Of a stretch of DNA of 64,000 nucleotides, positions 1 to 64,000 are shown piece by piece. Source of the stretch: a virus (Duplodnaviria; Caudoviricetes); IMG/VR virus record IMGVR_UViG_3300030330_002183, positions 32,001 through 96,000 of that record. One strand, given 5' to 3'. A model generated the notes under the pieces. It worked only from the letters and a program-made list of their open reading frames with translations, searched no databases and was not told the DNA's origin. A program made the position numbers and the translations under genes. Within the stretch, counting starts at the first letter, position 1. Each line of letters starts with the position of its first letter.

Positions 1-162
1 ATGAAATATTTAATAATGTTAGTATTATTTTTAGCATCGTGTGGTGTATCACAGGATATAACACAACGTCAATTGCTAATTCAAAAAGAAATTGATATAC
101 TGCAAGCAAACTATTATTATAGTTTAGACTCTTTGTATATAGAATACTATAAAAAGCCTTAA
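1..162 (+). CDS. small putative lipoprotein (53 aa)
   Basis: Read manually: MKYLIMLVLFLASCGVSQ... has a Lys-hydrophobic signal and an LASC lipobox; stop TAA at 160-162. Not in the ORF track. Confidence 0.6.
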   Translation: MKYLIMLVLFLASCGVSQDITQRQLLIQKEIDILQANYYYSLDSLYIEYYKKP

Positions 163-22308: not shown

Positions 22309-22704
22309 TTATTTTTTTCTTATTTTCTCTACAGAACGGCCACCAAAATAAGCACCTATTACTGTTATTAATACTAGTTGCAGTAGATCAGTCCACTTCT
22401 CTTCTACAACAAAGCTTATTGCACCTGCGTCAATAAAAATAAGTAGCATAGTGCAAACAATTAAAAATATAAGAACCATTGGTCTTACATTCTTAGATAA
22501 CCAAGAGTCAGATGCCATATCAGCATTCCAACGTTCAGTTATTTGTTTATCCATCTCAGCTTCATGCTTCAGGATTAATTCTTTTAGTTTTCTTTTAGCT
22601 TCTAGCTTTTCTTCTTTGGATGTAGTTAGGTTATCTAGAACCCCACCAACTGATTCAACCAGTTCTCCTGCACCTCCGCTAAATATTTTTCCTAGTATAC
22701 TCAT
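22309..22704 (-). CDS. holin (3TM / GTA-holin-like)
   Basis: RW.ADMASDSWLSKNVRP, two TM helices, GAYFGGRSVEK; likely start is MSILGKIF. Confidence 0.85.
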   Translation of the reverse strand: MSILGKIFSGGAGELVESVGGVLDNLTTSKEEKLEAKRKLKELILKHEAEMDKQITERWNADMASDSWLSKNVRPMVLIFLIVCTMLLIFIDAGAISFVVEEKWTDLLQLVLITVIGAYFGGRSVEKIRKK

Positions 22705-22705
22705 A

Positions 22706-22939
22706 TTATAATACTCTATTTGGGCCCATTTCCATTCCATATGGACAACCACATCCTTGTACTTGTCCTCCTTCAGCCTTCTTAAAACTTTTTAATGTCT
22801 TTGCTAAGTTACATCTTTGCTTTGCTAATGTAGATGGTGGATTTTGACAATACTGAGATATACTCATACCTTTTGCTTTAGCAGCAGCGGTAAGAGATCC
22901 CGGTTTTTTTATTGCTCCTTTAATCCAGTTTTTAGACAT
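22706..22939 (-). CDS. small basic phage protein
   Basis: WIKGAIKKPGSL...KQRCNLAKTLK. Confidence 0.7.
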   Translation of the reverse strand: MSKNWIKGAIKKPGSLTAAAKAKGMSISQYCQNPPSTLAKQRCNLAKTLKSFKKAEGGQVQGCGCPYGMEMGPNRVL

Positions 22940-23241
22940 TACTCACATTTATCAGCATGTGAACCATCACAGTTTCCATCAGGATCTTGTGTTTTACCAC
23001 ATGCACATTTCTTAGCCATGTATTTGTCAAATGCTCCTGACTTAACTACATCAGCAAATAATTTAAATTGTTCTTTAGTGAAAGATGTATATCCTTCTTC
23101 ATCACCACCTACTACAACTGTATCTGACTCAGCAGAAATATCAATAGCAGGGCATGATTTGCAGTTAGCACAAAAAGTCATCTGAGCTCTTCCTTCAGAA
23201 ACTTCTACATTTTTTAGGCCGTTAAATTCTTTTAAACTCAT
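22939..23241 (-). CDS. CDGSH iron-sulfur domain protein with DUF397-like N-terminus
   Basis: C-terminal CACGKTQDPDGNCDGSH; N-terminal CANCKSCP and FTKEQFKLFADVVKSGAFD. Confidence 0.7.
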   Translation of the reverse strand: MSLKEFNGLKNVEVSEGRAQMTFCANCKSCPAIDISAESDTVVVGGDEEGYTSFTKEQFKLFADVVKSGAFDKYMAKKCACGKTQDPDGNCDGSHADKCE

Positions 23242-23261
23242 TGGTTTATTCTTTTAAATTG

Positions 23262-23444
23262 TTACAGTTCAAATCCTAAGTTAAAGATCATAAATCTAAA
23301 CTTTGCACAATAAGCTTTTTTGTTCTCACATACTTCACATGGACAAAACATAACTTCTAATACAGTTAGTTTACCAATTCTTACATTGATCTCATACTTC
23401 TCTTTTTTATTTCCTGATTTCCAGGAATTAATCCAATTAATCAT
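23262..23444 (-). CDS. small hypothetical protein
   Basis: 60 aa with a CPCEVC motif. Confidence 0.6.
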   Translation of the reverse strand: MINWINSWKSGNKKEKYEINVRIGKLTVLEVMFCPCEVCENKKAYCAKFRFMIFNLGFEL

Positions 23445-23487: not shown

Positions 23488-24582
23488 TCAGAATATCACG
23501 TAATTGACACCCAATTTAAAGTCATGCCATTGTCTATTCCAATACTTATTGTATTTACCTTCCAAGAAAAAGCCAAGATGCTTACTAGCTCTCCATCCAA
23601 AAATTAAACCACCAGAGTAGTCTGTCCATTGCCCTCCGTGGAATGTATGATAAGAATACTCTCCTCCCGCATCATAGTGATAAGGCATTATGTTTCCCCA
23701 GGTATGTACCCAGAAGTCTTTTGTGAAATGGTAATAGTCCAACCCTATTACTAGAGAATGGTTCCACTGTGTTGGTAACTCATTTCTTTTCTTTTCTACA
23801 TAGTTGGATAGTACTTCAGGGATCACCACAGCTTCCCATACCTGGGTGTTTTCTGCTACAACGTTCCCATTAGGATTAAGATAGGTTACTCCGCCTGAGC
23901 CATCAAATTCTACATTATACCCTTCTTCTAAAGCAAGGTTTGTGTAGTGTATGTCTCCTGTAGATAGCACCCACTCTTCTAGTGGATCGTATCCATATGG
24001 TTCAGACAGTCTTTGTACTGCTCCTATATTCAATGAAAACTTATTGTTGAACTTTTGTCTATACCTTTGTGATGACTCGTAATACTTAATATCCGCAAAA
24101 CCATCTTGAACATATTCTACCTTTGCTATCCATCTGTTAGCTACGTATCTTAAAAAATGCTGTTGATTGAGAAAGTCGGTACCTTGTTGTCTAGCGTAAT
24201 CTAATTCAAAAAGAAACTCAAAACCTCTTACTTTACCTAATGTTGCTGCATCACTGTATGATTTTTCACTACCATCATAAAATGTATTAGCTCTATTCTC
24301 GTATCCAAATCTAGCAATCTTTCTAATACCAACTGACATTGAATAGTCAAATGGAGTCTCTATTGTTTCTTTTTCTAATCCATTCGTAACTGAAAATACA
24401 TCAACATCTGAAATAGAGTTGTTGCCATTGATAGCACCGTAAAAAGTAGCAAACTTAAATGTTTTTTTAAGGCTGCTTTTAAAATTACTTTCCTGACTAA
24501 AAGCAGAAGTTGTTCCTATTAGGAACATTACAATCATTACTAAAACATATATAACTGGTGTTATATCTATTGTCTTCCTCAT
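23488..24582 (-). CDS. putative outer-membrane beta-barrel protein
   Basis: Signal peptide (...SAFS/QE), alternating aromatic-rich strands, C-terminal FKLGVNYVIF beta-signal. Confidence 0.65.
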   Translation of the reverse strand: MRKTIDITPVIYVLVMIVMFLIGTTSAFSQESNFKSSLKKTFKFATFYGAINGNNSISDVDVFSVTNGLEKETIETPFDYSMSVGIRKIARFGYENRANTFYDGSEKSYSDAATLGKVRGFEFLFELDYARQQGTDFLNQQHFLRYVANRWIAKVEYVQDGFADIKYYESSQRYRQKFNNKFSLNIGAVQRLSEPYGYDPLEEWVLSTGDIHYTNLALEEGYNVEFDGSGGVTYLNPNGNVVAENTQVWEAVVIPEVLSNYVEKKRNELPTQWNHSLVIGLDYYHFTKDFWVHTWGNIMPYHYDAGGEYSYHTFHGGQWTDYSGGLIFGWRASKHLGFFLEGKYNKYWNRQWHDFKLGVNYVIF

Positions 24583-27053
24583 TGTTTTATAATTTTATTG
24601 AAGTATTGTTTATCATTAACATTTACTATAATATTATATAGACCATCTGCATAGTCTGATAAATCTATTACTTGTGGATTAAGCTCATCAATTATAGTTT
24701 TTCCACTCATATCTAAAACCTTTAATTGTATTTCTAATCTTGTAGATATTCTTACAATTCCAGTTGTTGGATTAGGATATATTACAACACCCATTACTGA
24801 TAAATCATCTATATTTGTAGGCCATCCAAGTTGACAATAATCATACATTGTTTGACATGATGCATCCCATGCATTTTCACAGCAATAAACATCTACATCA
24901 ATTACCCATGCATAACATCCATCATTTAACCAATAAGGATTACCTGGACCATCAATACAACCAGCACTATATAAACAAGAAGCTGAGTCATTAACATTTG
25001 CTAAAGGTTCATAGTTCCACGCACCTTGATCCATACACCCTGTAACCACTTCAATACACGTGCCGTTGTCAGTATTAGCCAACGGATCATAATTAAGGGC
25101 AGTACTATCAGTACAACCATAAATGTAAGCAATACAAGTAAAGTCTTCTGTATTAGCTTGTGGATTGTAGTTGAGCATGCTTGGATCAGTACAACCATAA
25201 ATAAAAGGAATGCAATTATTGTCATCTGTATTTGCTAAAGGATTAAAATTAAACATAGTAGAATCCATACAACCAAACACAAAAGGTTCACAAGAACCAT
25301 TATCTACATTGGCTAAAGGATTATAGTTAAAAGCAGAAGCATCTGTACAACCATATACTATATCAATACAACTTGAGTCATCTACATTTGCTAGCGGATT
25401 GTAATTAAATGCATTAGGGTCTGTACACCCTGGCACTGGTAATACACAAGAACCATCATCTGTATTAGCAGTTGAATCATAATTAAGTGCAATAGGATTT
25501 GTACAACCATCAACAACTGGTATACATGTTGAGTCATCAACATTAGCATTAGGATTATAGTTAAATGCTAAAGGATTCATACATCCTTCTACTATTGCTA
25601 CACATGATCCTGGTATCTCTACGTTTGCTAGCGGATCATAGTTAAGAGCTGTTGAGTCCATGCATCCTGCAACAATCAAAGTTGCACATGATCCATCATC
25701 ATAATCAGCAGCTGTATCATATTCTAAATATAGTGGGTTCATACATCCTGCCACATAGTAACAAGAGCTATCATCTGTGTTAGCCTCATCATAATAGTTT
25801 AAAGCTAGGCTATCTGTACACCCAAATATCTTTTCTATGCACGTATTACCACAATTAGTAATAAAAGAATATGGAAACAAAGGTTGTATAAATGGAGGTT
25901 GAACACTAATTAATGTATCACCTTCTGGATTAAGTAAAGTAAACCCACACTCTATAGTAGTTAGTGCTGCCTGTGGAGATATTTGAAACCTAAACGTAGC
26001 AGGATCCGGAGCATCTATTGTAAATTGGTATTCATCATTGAAACCACCTGTGTGAGTAAAATTAAAAGACGTATCAGGCAACTCTAATTCTAAATTTGAA
26101 CCAACCCAACCATTACCCATTAGATCATGCAGTATTAGTGTAAACTCACATTGTGGAACTAGGTCCATTGTGTTAGCTGTAGAATCATAGTTAAATGCAT
26201 CTGGATCAATGCATCCAAATACTTTTAATGTTTGACAGCTACCATCATCAGTATCTGCAAACGGGTTCCACTCTACATAATCATCATCTGTACACCCATA
26301 TATAGGAGGACATGTATCAATAACAAATACGTGTGTACTATCTGTACCAAAAGCTGGGTCTGTACCATATACTAATGTATCACCACATTGTTTAACAAAA
26401 TAAGATCCATCTTGACCTTGCCAAAGTGAACCATTTAAACCGTCTCCATAAGAATCAAATATTGTAAAATTTAACACAGTTTGTGGTAAACATACAGGAA
26501 CAACAACAGTTCCATAATCTGGTTGTGAACCATAACCACTACCTGATGCTACTACATAACCTAAAGTATCAGTAATCTCCCAGGACGTTTCTGATTGATA
26601 CTGATCTAAATTAATTATAACTACTGCAGGTAAACATGGTGGAGGTGGAGGTCCGTTTGGTTGACATGGACCTAAATTAAAGTTTATTATTTCTGTAGCA
26701 AAATAATTTGTAGGTGAAGATATAAATTCTACTATTGTATCTTGACAGTTATTCCATGTTCTAAAATAACCTTGCATGCCTGTATCTTGCCATCCGTCTC
26801 CATATTGATCTAATAGAATAGCAGTAAGAGGTTGTGCGTTTATAAATAAAGTATCTAATAAATATTCACTTTGCACTGTAGGTTGATGATGATACACAGT
26901 ATCACCTTGGGCATCTGTAATATAAAATTGAGATTCTGCAGGTCCCCATGAATCATATTGTGCTTCTATGACAATATAAGAATTTTGTGATAATGCAAAG
27001 CTAGATAATAATATTAATAGTGGAAATAAAAGTTTTTTCATATTAAAAATCAC
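24579..27053 (-). CDS. secreted Cys/Asp-repeat protein with T9SS (Por) type A C-terminal sorting domain
   Basis: Sec signal MKKLLFPLLILLSSFALS/Q; three D.YGDGW-type modules; 13 GCxD/N...C repeats; CTD IYPNP...DMSGK...DGLYNI...KIIKQ. Confidence 0.85.
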   Translation of the reverse strand: MIFNMKKLLFPLLILLSSFALSQNSYIVIEAQYDSWGPAESQFYITDAQGDTVYHHQPTVQSEYLLDTLFINAQPLTAILLDQYGDGWQDTGMQGYFRTWNNCQDTIVEFISSPTNYFATEIINFNLGPCQPNGPPPPPCLPAVVIINLDQYQSETSWEITDTLGYVVASGSGYGSQPDYGTVVVPVCLPQTVLNFTIFDSYGDGLNGSLWQGQDGSYFVKQCGDTLVYGTDPAFGTDSTHVFVIDTCPPIYGCTDDDYVEWNPFADTDDGSCQTLKVFGCIDPDAFNYDSTANTMDLVPQCEFTLILHDLMGNGWVGSNLELELPDTSFNFTHTGGFNDEYQFTIDAPDPATFRFQISPQAALTTIECGFTLLNPEGDTLISVQPPFIQPLFPYSFITNCGNTCIEKIFGCTDSLALNYYDEANTDDSSCYYVAGCMNPLYLEYDTAADYDDGSCATLIVAGCMDSTALNYDPLANVEIPGSCVAIVEGCMNPLAFNYNPNANVDDSTCIPVVDGCTNPIALNYDSTANTDDGSCVLPVPGCTDPNAFNYNPLANVDDSSCIDIVYGCTDASAFNYNPLANVDNGSCEPFVFGCMDSTMFNFNPLANTDDNNCIPFIYGCTDPSMLNYNPQANTEDFTCIAYIYGCTDSTALNYDPLANTDNGTCIEVVTGCMDQGAWNYEPLANVNDSASCLYSAGCIDGPGNPYWLNDGCYAWVIDVDVYCCENAWDASCQTMYDYCQLGWPTNIDDLSVMGVVIYPNPTTGIVRISTRLEIQLKVLDMSGKTIIDELNPQVIDLSDYADGLYNIIVNVNDKQYFNKIIKQ
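24975..25825 (-). repeat. coding tandem array of 11 degenerate ~26-aa (~78-bp) repeats GC(T/M)(D/N)xxAxNYxxxANxDDGSC
   Basis: Counted in the translation; two more copies lie upstream in the same gene. Boundaries are approximate. Confidence 0.85.
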
Positions 27054-27399
27054 TCATTATAAGTTCGTCAATAAATTCTTGTATCTCTTCTCTAGTAGCC
27101 TTCATTGTAAATGATATATCTGCTTGGTATCTTTTTACCTCTTCACCATCTTTAAAAATAATTATAGTAGGTACTACAACTATTTCATGTTTTTGTTGGG
27201 CTTTAGGGTCTTCAGCTATACATACATCTTTTACTTTGTCAACATCAGATAATTTTTTTAACCAAGTAACTTTGTTTGCATCATTCCAATTTGCATTGTA
27301 TTGTACTACAGTCACTTGACCAAATGATTGCTGTGAAAATAAAATACAAACAAGCAATAAAAGGTAGATCCCAAATATCTTCCAAACAGAATTTTTCAT
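27043..27399 (-). CDS. exported thioredoxin-fold protein lacking CxxC
   Basis: Signal peptide; VVQYNANWN replaces F.A.WCxxC; cis-Pro loop VVPTIIIFKDGEEVKR. Confidence 0.75.
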   Translation of the reverse strand: MKNSVWKIFGIYLLLLVCILFSQQSFGQVTVVQYNANWNDANKVTWLKKLSDVDKVKDVCIAEDPKAQQKHEIVVVPTIIIFKDGEEVKRYQADISFTMKATREEIQEFIDELIMSDF

Positions 27400-27400
27400 A

Positions 27401-27793
27401 TTAATTGAATACTCCGTACTCTATAGTAGTAGTACCAGATGAAGTTTGATATACTGTAATATTAGCAGTATCAGCTTTCCATGGAAATAGAGCAAATGTA
27501 CCTACTGGCAATGCTACTTCAAACTCATCATCATTACTAGTGTTACCTATCAAAGATATTCTAAGTGGTTGACCTGTTACATTCTTAAGATATACATATG
27601 TACTTCCTGTTGCAGATGCTGCAGTATAATCTGCATGAGCTAATAAAACTGCTTTACTAGATTTTTCTGCAGTTGTAGTAGTTCTTACAATACCTCCTGT
27701 AGTAACACTAGCAGCTTTCAAAAGATTTAAAGAAATTGCATTAGTTGTTAAACCGGTACTTGCAATATCTGCTGTTATATTTAATGTTGCCAT
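27401..27793 (-). CDS. small beta-rich putative structural protein
   Basis: Thr/Ala-rich; YVYLKN, FALFPW, IEYGVF; paralogue of the next gene. Confidence 0.65.
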   Translation of the reverse strand: MATLNITADIASTGLTTNAISLNLLKAASVTTGGIVRTTTTAEKSSKAVLLAHADYTAASATGSTYVYLKNVTGQPLRISLIGNTSNDDEFEVALPVGTFALFPWKADTANITVYQTSSGTTTIEYGVFN

Positions 27794-27818
27794 AATTTCT
27801 AAATATTTTTTTTAATTA

Positions 27819-28217
27819 TTATTGATATATTCCAAACTCTACAATAAGACCTACAGAAGCACCCCATGCTAAAATATTTTTATCAGTGGTTCTAGTTGTT
27901 CCTGCCCAAGGTATTAAAGCCCAATCACCACCTTTTAGTATGATTGGTGTTGCTGATGTTTCATCAACTGATACATAAATTCTATCATTACCAGATGAAA
28001 CAGGAGTAGCTGGATTATGAATCCATACATAAGCTCCTTCTGTATATTTTGTAGCTGATACAAGTTCTGTTGCACTTGAATGTGCAGTTGTATCAAGCAT
28101 AATACGTAATACACCACCTGATGTACAGCTAGCTAAATCTTTACTTGTTGAAAGATTCAGAGCGTCAGTAGTTAAGTCTGTTGAACCTAACGTTAATTTA
28201 AAATTTGCACTTGCCAT
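27819..28217 (-). CDS. small beta-rich putative structural protein (paralogue of 27401-27793)
   Basis: S.DLTTDALNL, GGVLR, YVWIHN, WALIPW, VEFGIY. Confidence 0.65.
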   Translation of the reverse strand: MASANFKLTLGSTDLTTDALNLSTSKDLASCTSGGVLRIMLDTTAHSSATELVSATKYTEGAYVWIHNPATPVSSGNDRIYVSVDETSATPIILKGGDWALIPWAGTTRTTDKNILAWGASVGLIVEFGIYQ

Positions 28218-28242: not shown

Positions 28243-28527
28243 TTATCTTAGTTTATCTATTTTTTCTTCTATACGTTTGATGTCATCTTTAATTTCTTCA
28301 ACATCATCTGCAGTATTTTGTATTGTTAGTCTAATATTTTTATCTTTCATATCAAACTCCATACGTGTAACATCTGGCGGTGGTGGTACAGGAAGTTCTT
28401 TTGCTTCTTCTATATCTGCCTGCAATGCAAACCACATACCTATTACTGTTGACAGAGCAATAGCAATAGCTATTAAAGTTTTTACACTAACCTTAAATGA
28501 TGTATCTTCATTTAACTCTTTTGCCAT
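28243..28527 (-). CDS. single-TM coiled-coil protein with poly-Pro linker
   Basis: TM LIAIAIALSTVIGMWFAL, PVPPPP, heptad C-terminus. Confidence 0.7.
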   Translation of the reverse strand: MAKELNEDTSFKVSVKTLIAIAIALSTVIGMWFALQADIEEAKELPVPPPPDVTRMEFDMKDKNIRLTIQNTADDVEEIKDDIKRIEEKIDKLR

Positions 28528-29674: not shown

Positions 29675-29974
29675 TTATATTTTTTTAAGACGTTCATTTT
29701 CTGCTTCAAGAAATTTAACTTTCTCACGTAGAGTTGCTACCTCTTCTGTTAATTTAATTACACATAATCTAAGATCATCTTTTTCTTTAGATGACTCAGT
29801 TAAAAGAACTTCTAACCTATTTACTCTTTTCTTTAGATCTTCTTTGTATTCTTCTTTTAAATCCATACTTTTGCTTTTTAATGCTAGTCTGGATTTGTAA
29901 AATTTAAACGCTTCACTACTACCTAGCACAGTCAATGCTGTAATAATAATAGTGCCTAATAGATTCCAATCCAT
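29675..29974 (-). CDS. N-terminal TM + coiled-coil protein (holin/antiholin-like)
   Basis: TM LLGTIIITALTVLGS followed by a leucine-zipper-like region. Confidence 0.6.
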   Translation of the reverse strand: MDWNLLGTIIITALTVLGSSEAFKFYKSRLALKSKSMDLKEEYKEDLKKRVNRLEVLLTESSKEKDDLRLCVIKLTEEVATLREKVKFLEAENERLKKI

Positions 29975-62278: not shown

Positions 62279-64000
62279 TTATAATATTGTTATATCTGCT
62301 CCCGCAGCAACTAATTGTTTATATGTATTTATATCTATATCTATAGATCCTCCTGATTTATAGAAACTTCCTCCTCTTTTTGCTGATTGTGTAGTACCAG
62401 AAATAACTTTATCATCTGGTCTAAATATACCAGTATTAGGATCATAGTTACCTTTATTACCTGATGTATCTGCATCTGTAGCAGCAAATATATTATCTGC
62501 TAAAAATGCATTGTTCATCATATCAACTTTTTGTTTTCTTTCATTAAGAGATCTTGCTATTTTAGTAATAGGTTTTGACATATTAATTGCCATATTACTA
62601 ATCTTACTATATGTTTGAACTGGTTTACTATCAGCTACTCTTAACATAGTATTATATGCTCTAGTTCCAAAACTTGGTTTTTCACTTGCTAATTCAATAG
62701 CATCTGCTCTATCAGATCTCATCTGTGCTTCTGCTGCTTCTGACTCATCATATGCATCCATAGCTGCTAAATCACCATCAAAACCTAATTCCATAGATCT
62801 ATCATATCTATCTAGATTTTCTTGAGTTCCCTGATACTCTGGTATATTACTCATCTGTTCTTCTAAGTTTGCACTAAACTCTTCTGACTGTTGTTGCATT
62901 TGTTCTGCAGATGGTATAATTGTTGCATTAGAACCAGTTCCCATTAATCTACCTTGACTTTCTGCTATTGTATAATCCATTGCGTCCATTGTATTTTGTA
63001 ACTCTGGAGACGGGCTAAAATCTACTTCTGGAAGATTTAATGGGTTTGTGTCAACCTGATTCATACTTAAAGAAGGATTTTCTAATCTTTTATTCATATC
63101 TGCAGTAAATGCTTTAAAGCTATCCATTGATCTTTGAACTGCTTGTGAATTAGCATACATTTGTGCATCAGTCATAGGTTTGTATTGATCCTCAGCAGTT
63201 GGTGCACCCAATACAGGAGTATTTAAAAGACCAGCAGGATTATTTAATGTTGGACCTGGAGTAGTAAAAGGTGAAATTTGATTACCTGATAAACTATATC
63301 CTGAAAATGTTGGAGTAAACATTCCTTGTGTTGGTGTACTAAATTCTCCTAATGATTGATATTTTGGTAAGCCACCACCATACCTTGCAAGATTAGGTGG
63401 AATGTCTTGAAGATCTTCAACACCTGGTGCATTTGGATCTACGGGTGCATCTACTGGTTCTGCAGGAATATATGGAATAGCTTGTTGTAACTCTGGTTCA
63501 GAATTATTAAGAGGTATTTCTGTAACTTGAATTGTTGGCATTGTTATAGGTTGATTCATTGGATTAGCCATTGATCTTTGCCATTCTATAGAATCATCGT
63601 CTCTATTGAAAGGTGTACTTGATCCTTCAAAGTTTGTTGATACAAATGAATCATCTTGACCTTCTATATTAATATCTCCTTGTGGACCTATATAATTAGG
63701 ATCTCCTGATCCTTCTACTCTTTGTAAATAGTCATATGGATTTGAGCTACCATCACTTCTTTGTGTATAACCTAAATATTCTGCATCTCTGTATTTCTCC
63801 TCTAATAAATCTCCTTGTTTAGCTCCAGAAAATCTACCGTATGTTTTACCTTTACCTGTAAGTTCATATAAATCATAATCAAAATCTTTAACCTTACCAT
63901 ACATATCACGTCTACCCTTTCTTCTTTCATTAAGAAAGTTTACCATATCTTCTTCACGTATCTCTTCTTCATCTTTTAAATATTTACCAGGGTTATAAGC
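62279..64000 (-). CDS. virion cargo-like low-complexity protein, 5' truncated by the window edge
   Basis: The frame stays open from 63946 to 64000 (AYNPGKYLKDEEEIREED-M); ARYGG, AKRGG and YKSGG motifs. Confidence 0.65.
   Translation of the reverse strand, partial: AYNPGKYLKDEEEIREEDMVNFLNERRKGRRDMYGKVKDFDYDLYELTGKGKTYGRFSGAKQGDLLEEKYRDAEYLGYTQRSDGSSNPYDYLQRVEGSGDPNYIGPQGDINIEGQDDSFVSTNFEGSSTPFNRDDDSIEWQRSMANPMNQPITMPTIQVTEIPLNNSEPELQQAIPYIPAEPVDAPVDPNAPGVEDLQDIPPNLARYGGGLPKYQSLGEFSTPTQGMFTPTFSGYSLSGNQISPFTTPGPTLNNPAGLLNTPVLGAPTAEDQYKPMTDAQMYANSQAVQRSMDSFKAFTADMNKRLENPSLSMNQVDTNPLNLPEVDFSPSPELQNTMDAMDYTIAESQGRLMGTGSNATIIPSAEQMQQQSEEFSANLEEQMSNIPEYQGTQENLDRYDRSMELGFDGDLAAMDAYDESEAAEAQMRSDRADAIELASEKPSFGTRAYNTMLRVADSKPVQTYSKISNMAINMSKPITKIARSLNERKQKVDMMNNAFLADNIFAATDADTSGNKGNYDPNTGIFRPDDKVISGTTQSAKRGGSFYKSGGSIDIDINTYKQLVAAGADITIL

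Follow-up and report, generated by a model that had tools for sequence, protein, structure and literature searches.

The window analyzed here, a stretch of 64,000 nucleotides corresponding to bases 32001-96000 of one 109,934-base viral record (IMG/VR IMGVR_UViG_3300030330_002183), carries a group of genes for exported envelope proteins close to its holin gene. Judged by gene content and distribution, these genes form a phage-specific module of marine crAss-like phages of Bacteroidota. The deep core of the module comprises a predicted outer-membrane beta-barrel (OMP364), a bitopic membrane protein (g94) and a thioredoxin-fold protein (Trx118) beside lysis genes, with a type IX secretion system (T9SS) cargo, T9_824, as a lineage-specific partner. 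Its role probably concerns the host outer envelope. A first-pass annotation of the window had proposed a three-part exported module of OMP364, T9_824 and Trx118. That these are phage genes for exported envelope proteins was substantiated, whereas the number of parts has to be raised to four, as g94 had been overlooked. The functions assigned there, of a helper in folding, an adhesin and a partner in the outer membrane, are to be taken as putative.

All features described below lie on the minus strand unless stated otherwise, and coordinates refer to the window. The three annotated open reading frames (ORFs) were found again with 118, 824 and 364 amino acids (aa), all on this strand. The gene at 23488-24582 encodes OMP364, a 364-aa protein predicted to be an exported outer-membrane beta-barrel of the 12-stranded class. 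Its AlphaFold2 model reached a pLDDT of 80 and a pTM of 0.72, and at the top of its VIA-align matches stand outer-membrane barrels only (Tsx, Z 13.2; EstA, 12.9; KdgM, 12.8; NanC, 12.5). Foldseek returned 61 PDB matches at E<=1e-3, and those listed are dominated by outer-membrane barrels. Within the aligned family 25 of 31 members end in Phe and the other six in Ile, with G358, N360 and Y361 conserved near the C-terminus. The barrel with terminal Phe that had been annotated is thus supported by the predicted fold. An insert of about 80 aa is located at aa 194-271. Conservation within the family is particularly high in residues 92-117, yet their model confidence is low, a pattern often marking a binding site, which this segment might represent.

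No family could be assigned to OMP364 in Pfam, NCBIfam or PHROGs. With a threshold of E<=0.1 neither PorP_SprF (PF11751; Pfam and NCBIfam searched) nor the hidden Markov model (HMM) of the cyanophage family Phage_OMP (PF24653) matched. Language-model neighbours of the barrel are viral clusters without annotation, and named outer-membrane-barrel clusters, including PF24653 Phage_OMP at 0.93, are to be taken as leads only. The module is abundant: 3716 homologues of the barrel, forming 336 clusters at 50% identity, occur in a metagenome protein collection, and two sets of about 100 viral contigs were obtained. A Pfam domain was found in none of the 120 homologues listed. Some homologues (L010:7959-9020, L020:7992-9041 and others) contain a Cys directly after a lipobox-like LVGC or ITSC, or an SCNAQ motif where the signal peptide ends. 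Part of the barrel family may be lipidated; the copy in the window has no such Cys.

Immediately upstream of the barrel gene lies the gene of the predicted exported cargo T9_824 (24579-27053, 824 aa from a GTG), the stop codon of which shares four nucleotides (ATGA) with the barrel start. The three genes had been annotated as overlapping. This is correct for cargo and barrel, whereas the overlap of the Trx118 and cargo genes depends on the GTG start. Since homologues begin with the consensus MKKLL, the ATG at 27041, located 1 nt past the Trx118 stop, is probably the true start, which gives 820 aa and no overlap. A type A T9SS C-terminal sorting domain (CTD) occupies the extreme C-terminus (aa 758-824 of 824; 24582-24782). 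Both PF18962 (41.3 bits, cut-off 27, residues 758-822) and TIGR04183 (34.7 bits, cut-off 23) scored above their cut-offs, confirming the assignment made before. Proteins with a T9SS CTD are routed to the cell surface in Bacteroidota, and T9_824 is a putative substrate of the host T9SS, for which removal of the CTD would be expected.

With 41 Cys and 80 Asp as well as 14 copies of a 26-aa two-Cys unit, T9_824 shows the Cys/Asp-repeat character that had been described. Twelve of the repeats stand in tandem (aa 411-~723; 24885-25823) and two further copies are found at aa 253-305. The repeat is covered by no Pfam model. A tblastn search of the cargo against GenBank phages gave matches confined to this short repeat, which also occurs in Synechococcus phage S-CAM3 (NC_031906.1, 36811-36954, annotated as 'virion structural protein'; tblastn) and in Marine virus AG-345-P14, with 54-60% identity over ~50 aa. 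The N-terminal part (aa 25-410; 25824-26981) was modelled by AlphaFold2 with a pLDDT of 86.5 as three beta-sandwich modules, each bearing a YGDGW-like motif, and has 1643 homologues. Foldseek with this part yielded just generic multi-domain beta-sandwich matches with TM-scores of 0.1-0.15, and no enzyme fold was recognized. The term adhesin-like describes the modelled shape only.

Trx118 (27043-27399, 118 aa) is a predicted exported thioredoxin-fold protein without catalytic Cys. On its own it scored 19.8 bits against the Pfam thioredoxin family (PF00085), under the cut-off of 23.5. A profile of 24 family members matched 79 PDB sequences at E<=0.01 (best 2.2e-8), and almost all of the 60 matches listed are thioredoxins or proteins with a thioredoxin domain. 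CxxC is present in none of the 24 members; the position of WCGPC is a five-residue deletion between invariant Asn residues, and all members share the cis-Pro motif and a C-terminal Phe. The earlier assignment of a CxxC-less thioredoxin fold is in accordance with these data. The fourth protein, g94 (28243-28527, 94 aa), is a predicted bitopic membrane protein recognized as an ORF and by its conservation in the viral loci. Its parts are a single transmembrane helix (~aa 17-35), a stretch rich in Pro and, at the C-terminus, a conserved charged tail that is heptad-like by sequence. With 74% mean column identity it is the best conserved member of the module. No useful match to g94 was obtained in Pfam, NCBIfam or PHROGs, and its language-model neighbours are solely viral clusters without annotation.

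Signal peptides were evaluated with a crude heuristic of our own, not with SignalP; the heuristic requires a hydrophobic core at the N-terminus and, after it, a small residue and then Gln. This pattern is found in 69 of 69 barrel, 52 of 67 Trx118 and 58 of 63 cargo sequences, cargo ORFs below 650 aa that are cut by contig ends being omitted, and in none of the control sequences (0/61 for g94, 0/44 for the holin). In T9_824 itself the hydrophobic core is followed by Ser-Gln. The signal peptides annotated on the three proteins are supported by this heuristic. Signal peptides exposing Gln are known as the Q-rule of Bacteroidetes (PMC5837995), and the predicted signal peptides of the module follow this rule.

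The record carrying the window encodes the large terminase subunit (TerL), portal and major capsid proteins, and additionally a DNA polymerase and a ribonucleotide reductase. Its completeness was estimated at 94% by CheckV. The closest TerL proteins among GenBank phages, at ~25% identity, belong to crAss-like phages infecting Bacteroides and Flavobacterium. By these sequence relations the contig is classified as a distant crAss-like marine phage of 110 kb. The crAss-like TerL relatives and the Q-rule signal peptides make a Bacteroidota host most likely.

No point in support of a host-derived insert or an assembly chimera was found. The module stretch is contained in 20 runs from 10 studies (marine, estuary and seawater metagenomes), none of which is listed as an RNA data set. 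Contigs from runs of four studies (X1, X2, X8, X9) span the barrel/cargo junction, contigs from three runs (X1, X2, X8) span the junction of Trx118 and the neighbouring g130 gene, and fragmentation of the metagenome contigs is limited to the cargo repeat region. The GC content is uniform throughout the window. The barrel family occurs in 117 confirmed viral contigs, and among 185,579 species genomes (one per species) the barrel was found on six contigs only, all from metagenome-assembled genomes (MAGs). As far as the available data go, the bridging contigs and the viral distribution refute an insert or chimera, to which we attach a practically negligible probability; the module genes, as annotated, are phage genes. 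The six MAG contigs (L084-L089, barrel identity 55-68%) bear the labels Parvibaculum, Nitrosopelagicus, Flavobacteriales, Sphingobacteriales, Winogradskyella and Rickettsiales. Such discordant labels fit mis-binned phage DNA, and probably these are phage contigs placed in bacterial and archaeal MAGs. No match to the barrel was obtained by tblastn in 50,697 GenBank phage records, and a search of GenBank phages at the DNA level gave nothing relevant. By this distribution the barrel family is classed as phage-only. In run X8 a contig was found in which 23445 is joined to 27043, so that exactly the cargo and barrel genes are skipped. It matches just the 3' end of Trx118 and probably stems from a relative with the common gene order (g94 and Trx118, then a small ORF), not from a deletion.

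To follow the module across viruses, the 80 best viral loci by barrel (set 1) were collected, the barrels of which are 56-90% identical to that of the window. By tblastn the barrel was found in 80, the cargo, Trx118 and g94 in 78 each, and the holin in 55 of these loci. A cargo homologue adjoins the barrel in 78 loci. After clustering of ORFs, barrel, cargo, g94 and Trx118 occur together in 72/80 loci and on one strand in all 80, which bears out the expected conserved co-occurrence in other phage contigs. As the clustering used greedy non-overlapping ORFs of at least 50 aa, some g94 genes were hidden (74 compared to 78 by tblastn). PF18962 matches 77 of 78 C-termini of the cargo family at E<=0.01. 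This is the independent figure; the 79/80 obtained in set 1 with our own CTD HMM is circular, the HMM having been built from the same sequences. The order cargo-barrel-g94-Trx118 is shared by 47 loci, and 12 more contain one extra small membrane protein. In the lineage of the window the cargo-barrel pair follows Trx118 instead of preceding g94, and two further genes, g130 and g132, are inserted.

A second set of 80 further viral loci (set 2) was fetched with the barrel homologue P0135, which is ~33% identical to the barrel of the window. HMMs from set 1 detected the core genes in 79 (barrel), 70 (g94) and 65 (Trx118) of these loci and the lysis genes in 44 (holin) and 27 (M15 peptidase). Trx118 follows g94 directly in 59 loci of set 1 and 60 of set 2. 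A T9SS domain was found by our CTD HMM in 0/80 loci of set 2, and by Pfam neither in five small exported proteins nor in the C-terminal 150 aa of nine large ORFs located upstream in seven loci; this Pfam scan covered selected ORFs, and a divergent signal is possible. Directly after the barrel, 67 of 79 loci encode an exported protein of 148-308 aa with 9 Cys. Because set 2 keeps barrel, g94 and Trx118 without a detectable T9SS domain, the deep core of the module is assigned to these three genes, and the T9SS cargo is regarded as a lineage-specific partner. The cargo that the first-pass annotation had named as a part of the module does not belong to this deep core. For the most distant barrel homologue (P0241) no viral locus was found.

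The barrel is a nearly constant component of its own clade. Eleven long records carry a TerL at least 80% identical to that of this phage, and the barrel is present in eight of them; among those that are at least 90% complete it is present in six of seven. In comparison with the ~60-kb lineage of locus L055, the barrels are 59% identical, whereas the TerL proteins, both phrog_6681, share 24% identity over 126 aa. Either the cassette moves between phage lineages or an unusually strong constraint holds it. A phage-specific barrel that is more conserved across lineages than the terminase suggests contact with a conserved host machinery, possibly the beta-barrel assembly machinery (BAM), the T9SS or the envelope.

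The second aspect that the previous reading had missed is the proximity to lysis genes, without which it stays incomplete. At most three genes away from the module, 47/80 loci of set 1 have a holin and 41/80 an M15 peptidase (endolysin). The usual gene order after Trx118 is a 155-aa M15 peptidase and then the holin. This 155-aa protein matches Peptidase_M15_3 (PF08291, 9e-18) and phrog_894 'endolysin' (6e-34). In both subfamilies the holin is ~0.85 kb and the M15 gene ~0.4 kb away from a core gene, measured between gene centres and given as medians. Other lineages have the holin immediately upstream of the cargo or as the next gene after Trx118; the proximity of module and holin therefore survives rearrangement. 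In the window the holin is encoded at 22309-22752 (PF11351, 28.5 bits, cut-off 24.8; phrog_3427, 1.3e-31). Since homologues align from residue ~17, its real start is probably internal. A role at lysis, which the first-pass annotation had not considered, is suggested by this association with the holin and endolysin genes.

The analysis covers gene content, folds, sorting signals, phage specificity and lysis-gene linkage, whereas a physical complex, its timing and any effect on the outer membrane are inferred. The module may form an assembly across the envelope and, as a functional counterpart of spanins, act on the outer membrane during lysis, a reading to which we give somewhat less than an even chance. 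A more specific version is a new lysis device of barrel, bitopic g94 and redox-dead Trx118 as connector that replaces spanins, with the T9SS cargo coupled to it in one lineage; this version is put forward as a tentative and rather doubtful proposal. Production of the proteins would coincide with that of the lysis proteins, and the host Sec system would export them, the barrel being inserted by BAM and the cargo passing through the host T9SS. Barrel, g94 and Trx118 would then assemble from the inner to the outer membrane, with g94 as inner-membrane, Trx118 as periplasmic and the barrel as outer-membrane part. Once holin and endolysin have acted, such an assembly could weaken or open the outer membrane. 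The cargo, or the small 9-Cys exported protein of set 2, would be a surface or periplasmic accessory. We favour the lysis reading because of the position in the lysis cassette, the combination of inner-membrane, outer-membrane and periplasmic partners and the absence of a nearby lipoprotein gene: when all ORFs with 35 aa or more were scanned for a lipobox, three candidates resulted, none of them near g94 or the holin. It is also favoured because, in the accessible part of a survey, Bacteroidetes phages are reported to use solely unimolecular spanins (PMC12596118).

Several observations weigh against this role at lysis. Any physical link among the module proteins, or between them and lysis, is one that we infer from sequence. 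The loci are not independent and include many close relatives. A recognized holin is missing from the fetched flanks in 24/80 loci of set 1 and 36/80 of set 2, some of which are cut by contig ends, and in the window the barrel and the holin are not direct neighbours, three small ORFs lying between them. PF08291, PF01510 and PF00959 detected no endolysin in this genome, and the M15 protein of the relatives gave no tblastn match to it. With just ~60 residues past its transmembrane helix, g94 is short for a span of the periplasm. To our knowledge there is no precedent for an integral barrel as outer-membrane part of a spanin-like device. Lysis cassettes are hot spots for unrelated accessory genes, such as bor in lambda, and adjacency alone is therefore weak evidence. 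A complex prediction with barrel, Trx118 and the periplasmic part of g94 scored 0.00, below the mark, which counts neither way.

The strongest competitor of the lysis role starts from the cargo. T9_824 could be displayed on the infected cell, with the barrel as its carrier or anchor and Trx118 as holdase for the 41-Cys protein; receptor masking, superinfection exclusion, shielding of progeny from debris or cell adhesion would be conceivable effects. The overlapping, adjoining genes of cargo and barrel are consistent with such a remodelling of the surface, as is the adhesin-like build of the cargo with three beta-sandwich modules on a long Cys-repeat stalk and no enzyme fold. A carrier role would be analogous to type B cargo and its PorP/SprF shuttles, since a T9SS cargo linked to a barrel shuttle is the established pattern for type B CTDs according to the text available of PMC12618676, and an alteration of host surfaces by T9SS cargo of phages has been suggested (PMC7468147). 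However, the CTD of T9_824 is of type A, and all type A CTDs are described as recognized by the host PorV shuttle (PMC12618676), so that no private carrier is needed. The barrel lacks a PorP_SprF match in Pfam. It also lacks the C-tail with Cys-X-Cys of SprF, having no Cys after the signal peptide and ending in Phe with its terminal strand; no solved PorP/SprF chain is among the fold matches listed, an absence from the list that is not an exclusion. The distant subfamily keeps barrel, g94 and Trx118 without a detectable T9SS domain, and the presence of g94 and the linkage to holin and endolysin are left unexplained. We consider display of the cargo possible but somewhat less likely than the role at lysis.

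The lysis genes could also be connected with the module through timing. In an antiholin-like device g94 and Trx118, perhaps with the barrel as outer sensor, would delay or trigger the holin, for which T4 lysis inhibition offers a comparable logic. The small, single-helix g94 with its charged tail is in many loci a neighbour of the holin, the exported Trx118 comes after g94, and a second holin-like gene, g99, heads the block. However, similarity to any known antiholin is lacking, the large barrel and the T9SS cargo are left without explanation, and the conservation of holin regulators is usually lower than that seen here; such a control is regarded as improbable. Still further down we rank an auxiliary uptake channel, in which the barrel acts as a substrate-specific porin boosting nutrient uptake and the cargo binds the substrate. 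The best fold matches (Tsx, KdgM, NanC) are indeed small specific channels, and porin-like proteins occur in uncultured phages. However, function is not given by the fold class, the TM-scores are low (0.3-0.4 by query), and the family is absent from bacterial isolate genomes. Since this idea also leaves the lysis-gene linkage, g94 and Trx118 unexplained, we rate it as very improbable.

Compared to known systems, the proposed lysis device shares with the two-component spanins of phage lysis cassettes (i-spanin and o-spanin) the position beside holin and endolysin, a putative small type II-like inner-membrane partner and an outer-membrane partner. The outer partner here is a predicted 364-aa integral barrel instead of a small lipoprotein, the thioredoxin-fold protein is added as a third partner in the periplasm, and no sequence relation to spanins exists. 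Phage-encoded outer-membrane barrels are known from lambda (Lom), from cyanophages (PF24653 Phage_OMP) and as porin-like proteins in BFVD. The barrel described here matches neither PF24653 nor another HMM of outer-membrane proteins, differs in barrel class and partners and, as outlined above, is nearly core in its phage clade. The T9SS cargo and PorP/SprF shuttle of Flavobacterium johnsoniae (PMC12618676, PMC12635249; accessible parts) resemble the cargo-barrel pair in that a CTD protein is encoded beside an outer-membrane barrel. There, the CTD is of type B and the close homologues of SprF have a periplasmic C-tail with Cys-X-Cys (PMC12635249). In contrast, the phage-borne genes are accompanied by g94 and Trx118, the CTD is of type A, and the barrel shows neither a PorP_SprF HMM match nor such a C-tail.

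Type A T9SS cargo encoded by Bacteroidota phages has been published for 'Cryophage' (PMC7468147) and for crAss-like BACON ORFs (PMC6949934). The cargo there comprises variable enzymes or BACON proteins, and the accessible parts of both articles describe no conserved partnership of barrel, bitopic protein and Trx beside lysis genes. Similarly, Gln-exposing Q-rule signal peptides and a proposed modification of the host envelope were reported for proteins of Porphyromonas gingivalis phages (PMC10367356), which are other phages and other proteins, with no such module in the text available. The first-pass annotation had regarded the system as undescribed. For phage T9SS cargo this has to be corrected in view of the above articles, whereas no account of the whole barrel/g94/Trx118 module or its tie to lysis genes was found in a literature search that left subscription journals and supplements largely outside. 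Within these sources, phage T9SS cargo and Q-rule phage signal peptides are already known, and the barrel/g94/Trx118 module beside lysis genes is new.

The passage of the outer membrane at lysis in Bacteroidota phages and the effects of these phages on the host surface are poorly known. If the module is a lysis device, the outer-membrane step would be solved in a new way in a phylum from which two-component spanins are not known. If it is a display system, lytic marine phages would routinely re-dress their hosts through the T9SS. With either reading a defined set of four genes results, and the barrel family can serve as a marker for this phage group.

Further genes surround the module. Between g94 and Trx118 the window contains g130 and g132 (27401-28217), two paralogous proteins of ~130 aa without signal peptides and without useful matches in Pfam, NCBIfam or PHROGs. 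Relatives of these two occur near the module in 21/80 loci of set 1 and 22/80 of set 2. Between the barrel gene and the holin three small ORFs of 77, 100 and 60 aa are located (22706-23444), of which only the 77-aa ORF has a PHROG match (phrog_20603). The minus-strand block is headed by g99 (29675-29974), a transmembrane and coiled-coil protein with a weak match to phrog_2658 'hol-like' (E 5.9e-6). Between g94 and Trx118, 12/80 loci (L037:9346-9648 and 11 others) carry an additional membrane protein of 100 aa, which matches VanZ-like families and DUF2279, a predicted periplasmic lipoprotein family. A protein of 70 aa that has two hydrophobic helices (cluster c13; for example L055:3681-3893 and L172:9663-9875) adjoins the module in 35/80 and 45/80 loci. 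It is unannotated and holin-like in size and shape; the copy on the contig of this phage (23107-23313 of the contig) lies outside the window, ~32 kb from the module. A 53-aa ORF with a classic lipobox, of the size of an o-spanin or exclusion lipoprotein, was found in the plus-strand block (1-162, plus strand), far from the lysis genes; a partner gene for it was not found.

Scans for promoters and terminators were uninformative, and operon boundaries could therefore not be drawn. Sigma-70-like promoter sites were rarer than in shuffled sequences (35 compared to 51), and the motif TANNTTTG was not enriched, with 114 matches compared to 104 expected and 19 of 100 shuffles reaching 114. From 32596 to the end of the window at 64000, and on to the end of the contig, giant minus-strand ORFs of 1877, 5033, 1152, 1803, 819, 1972 and 2383 aa follow. 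The 1152-aa and 1803-aa ORFs have no PHROG match, and the 1877-aa ORF gives weak matches to exonuclease PHROGs.

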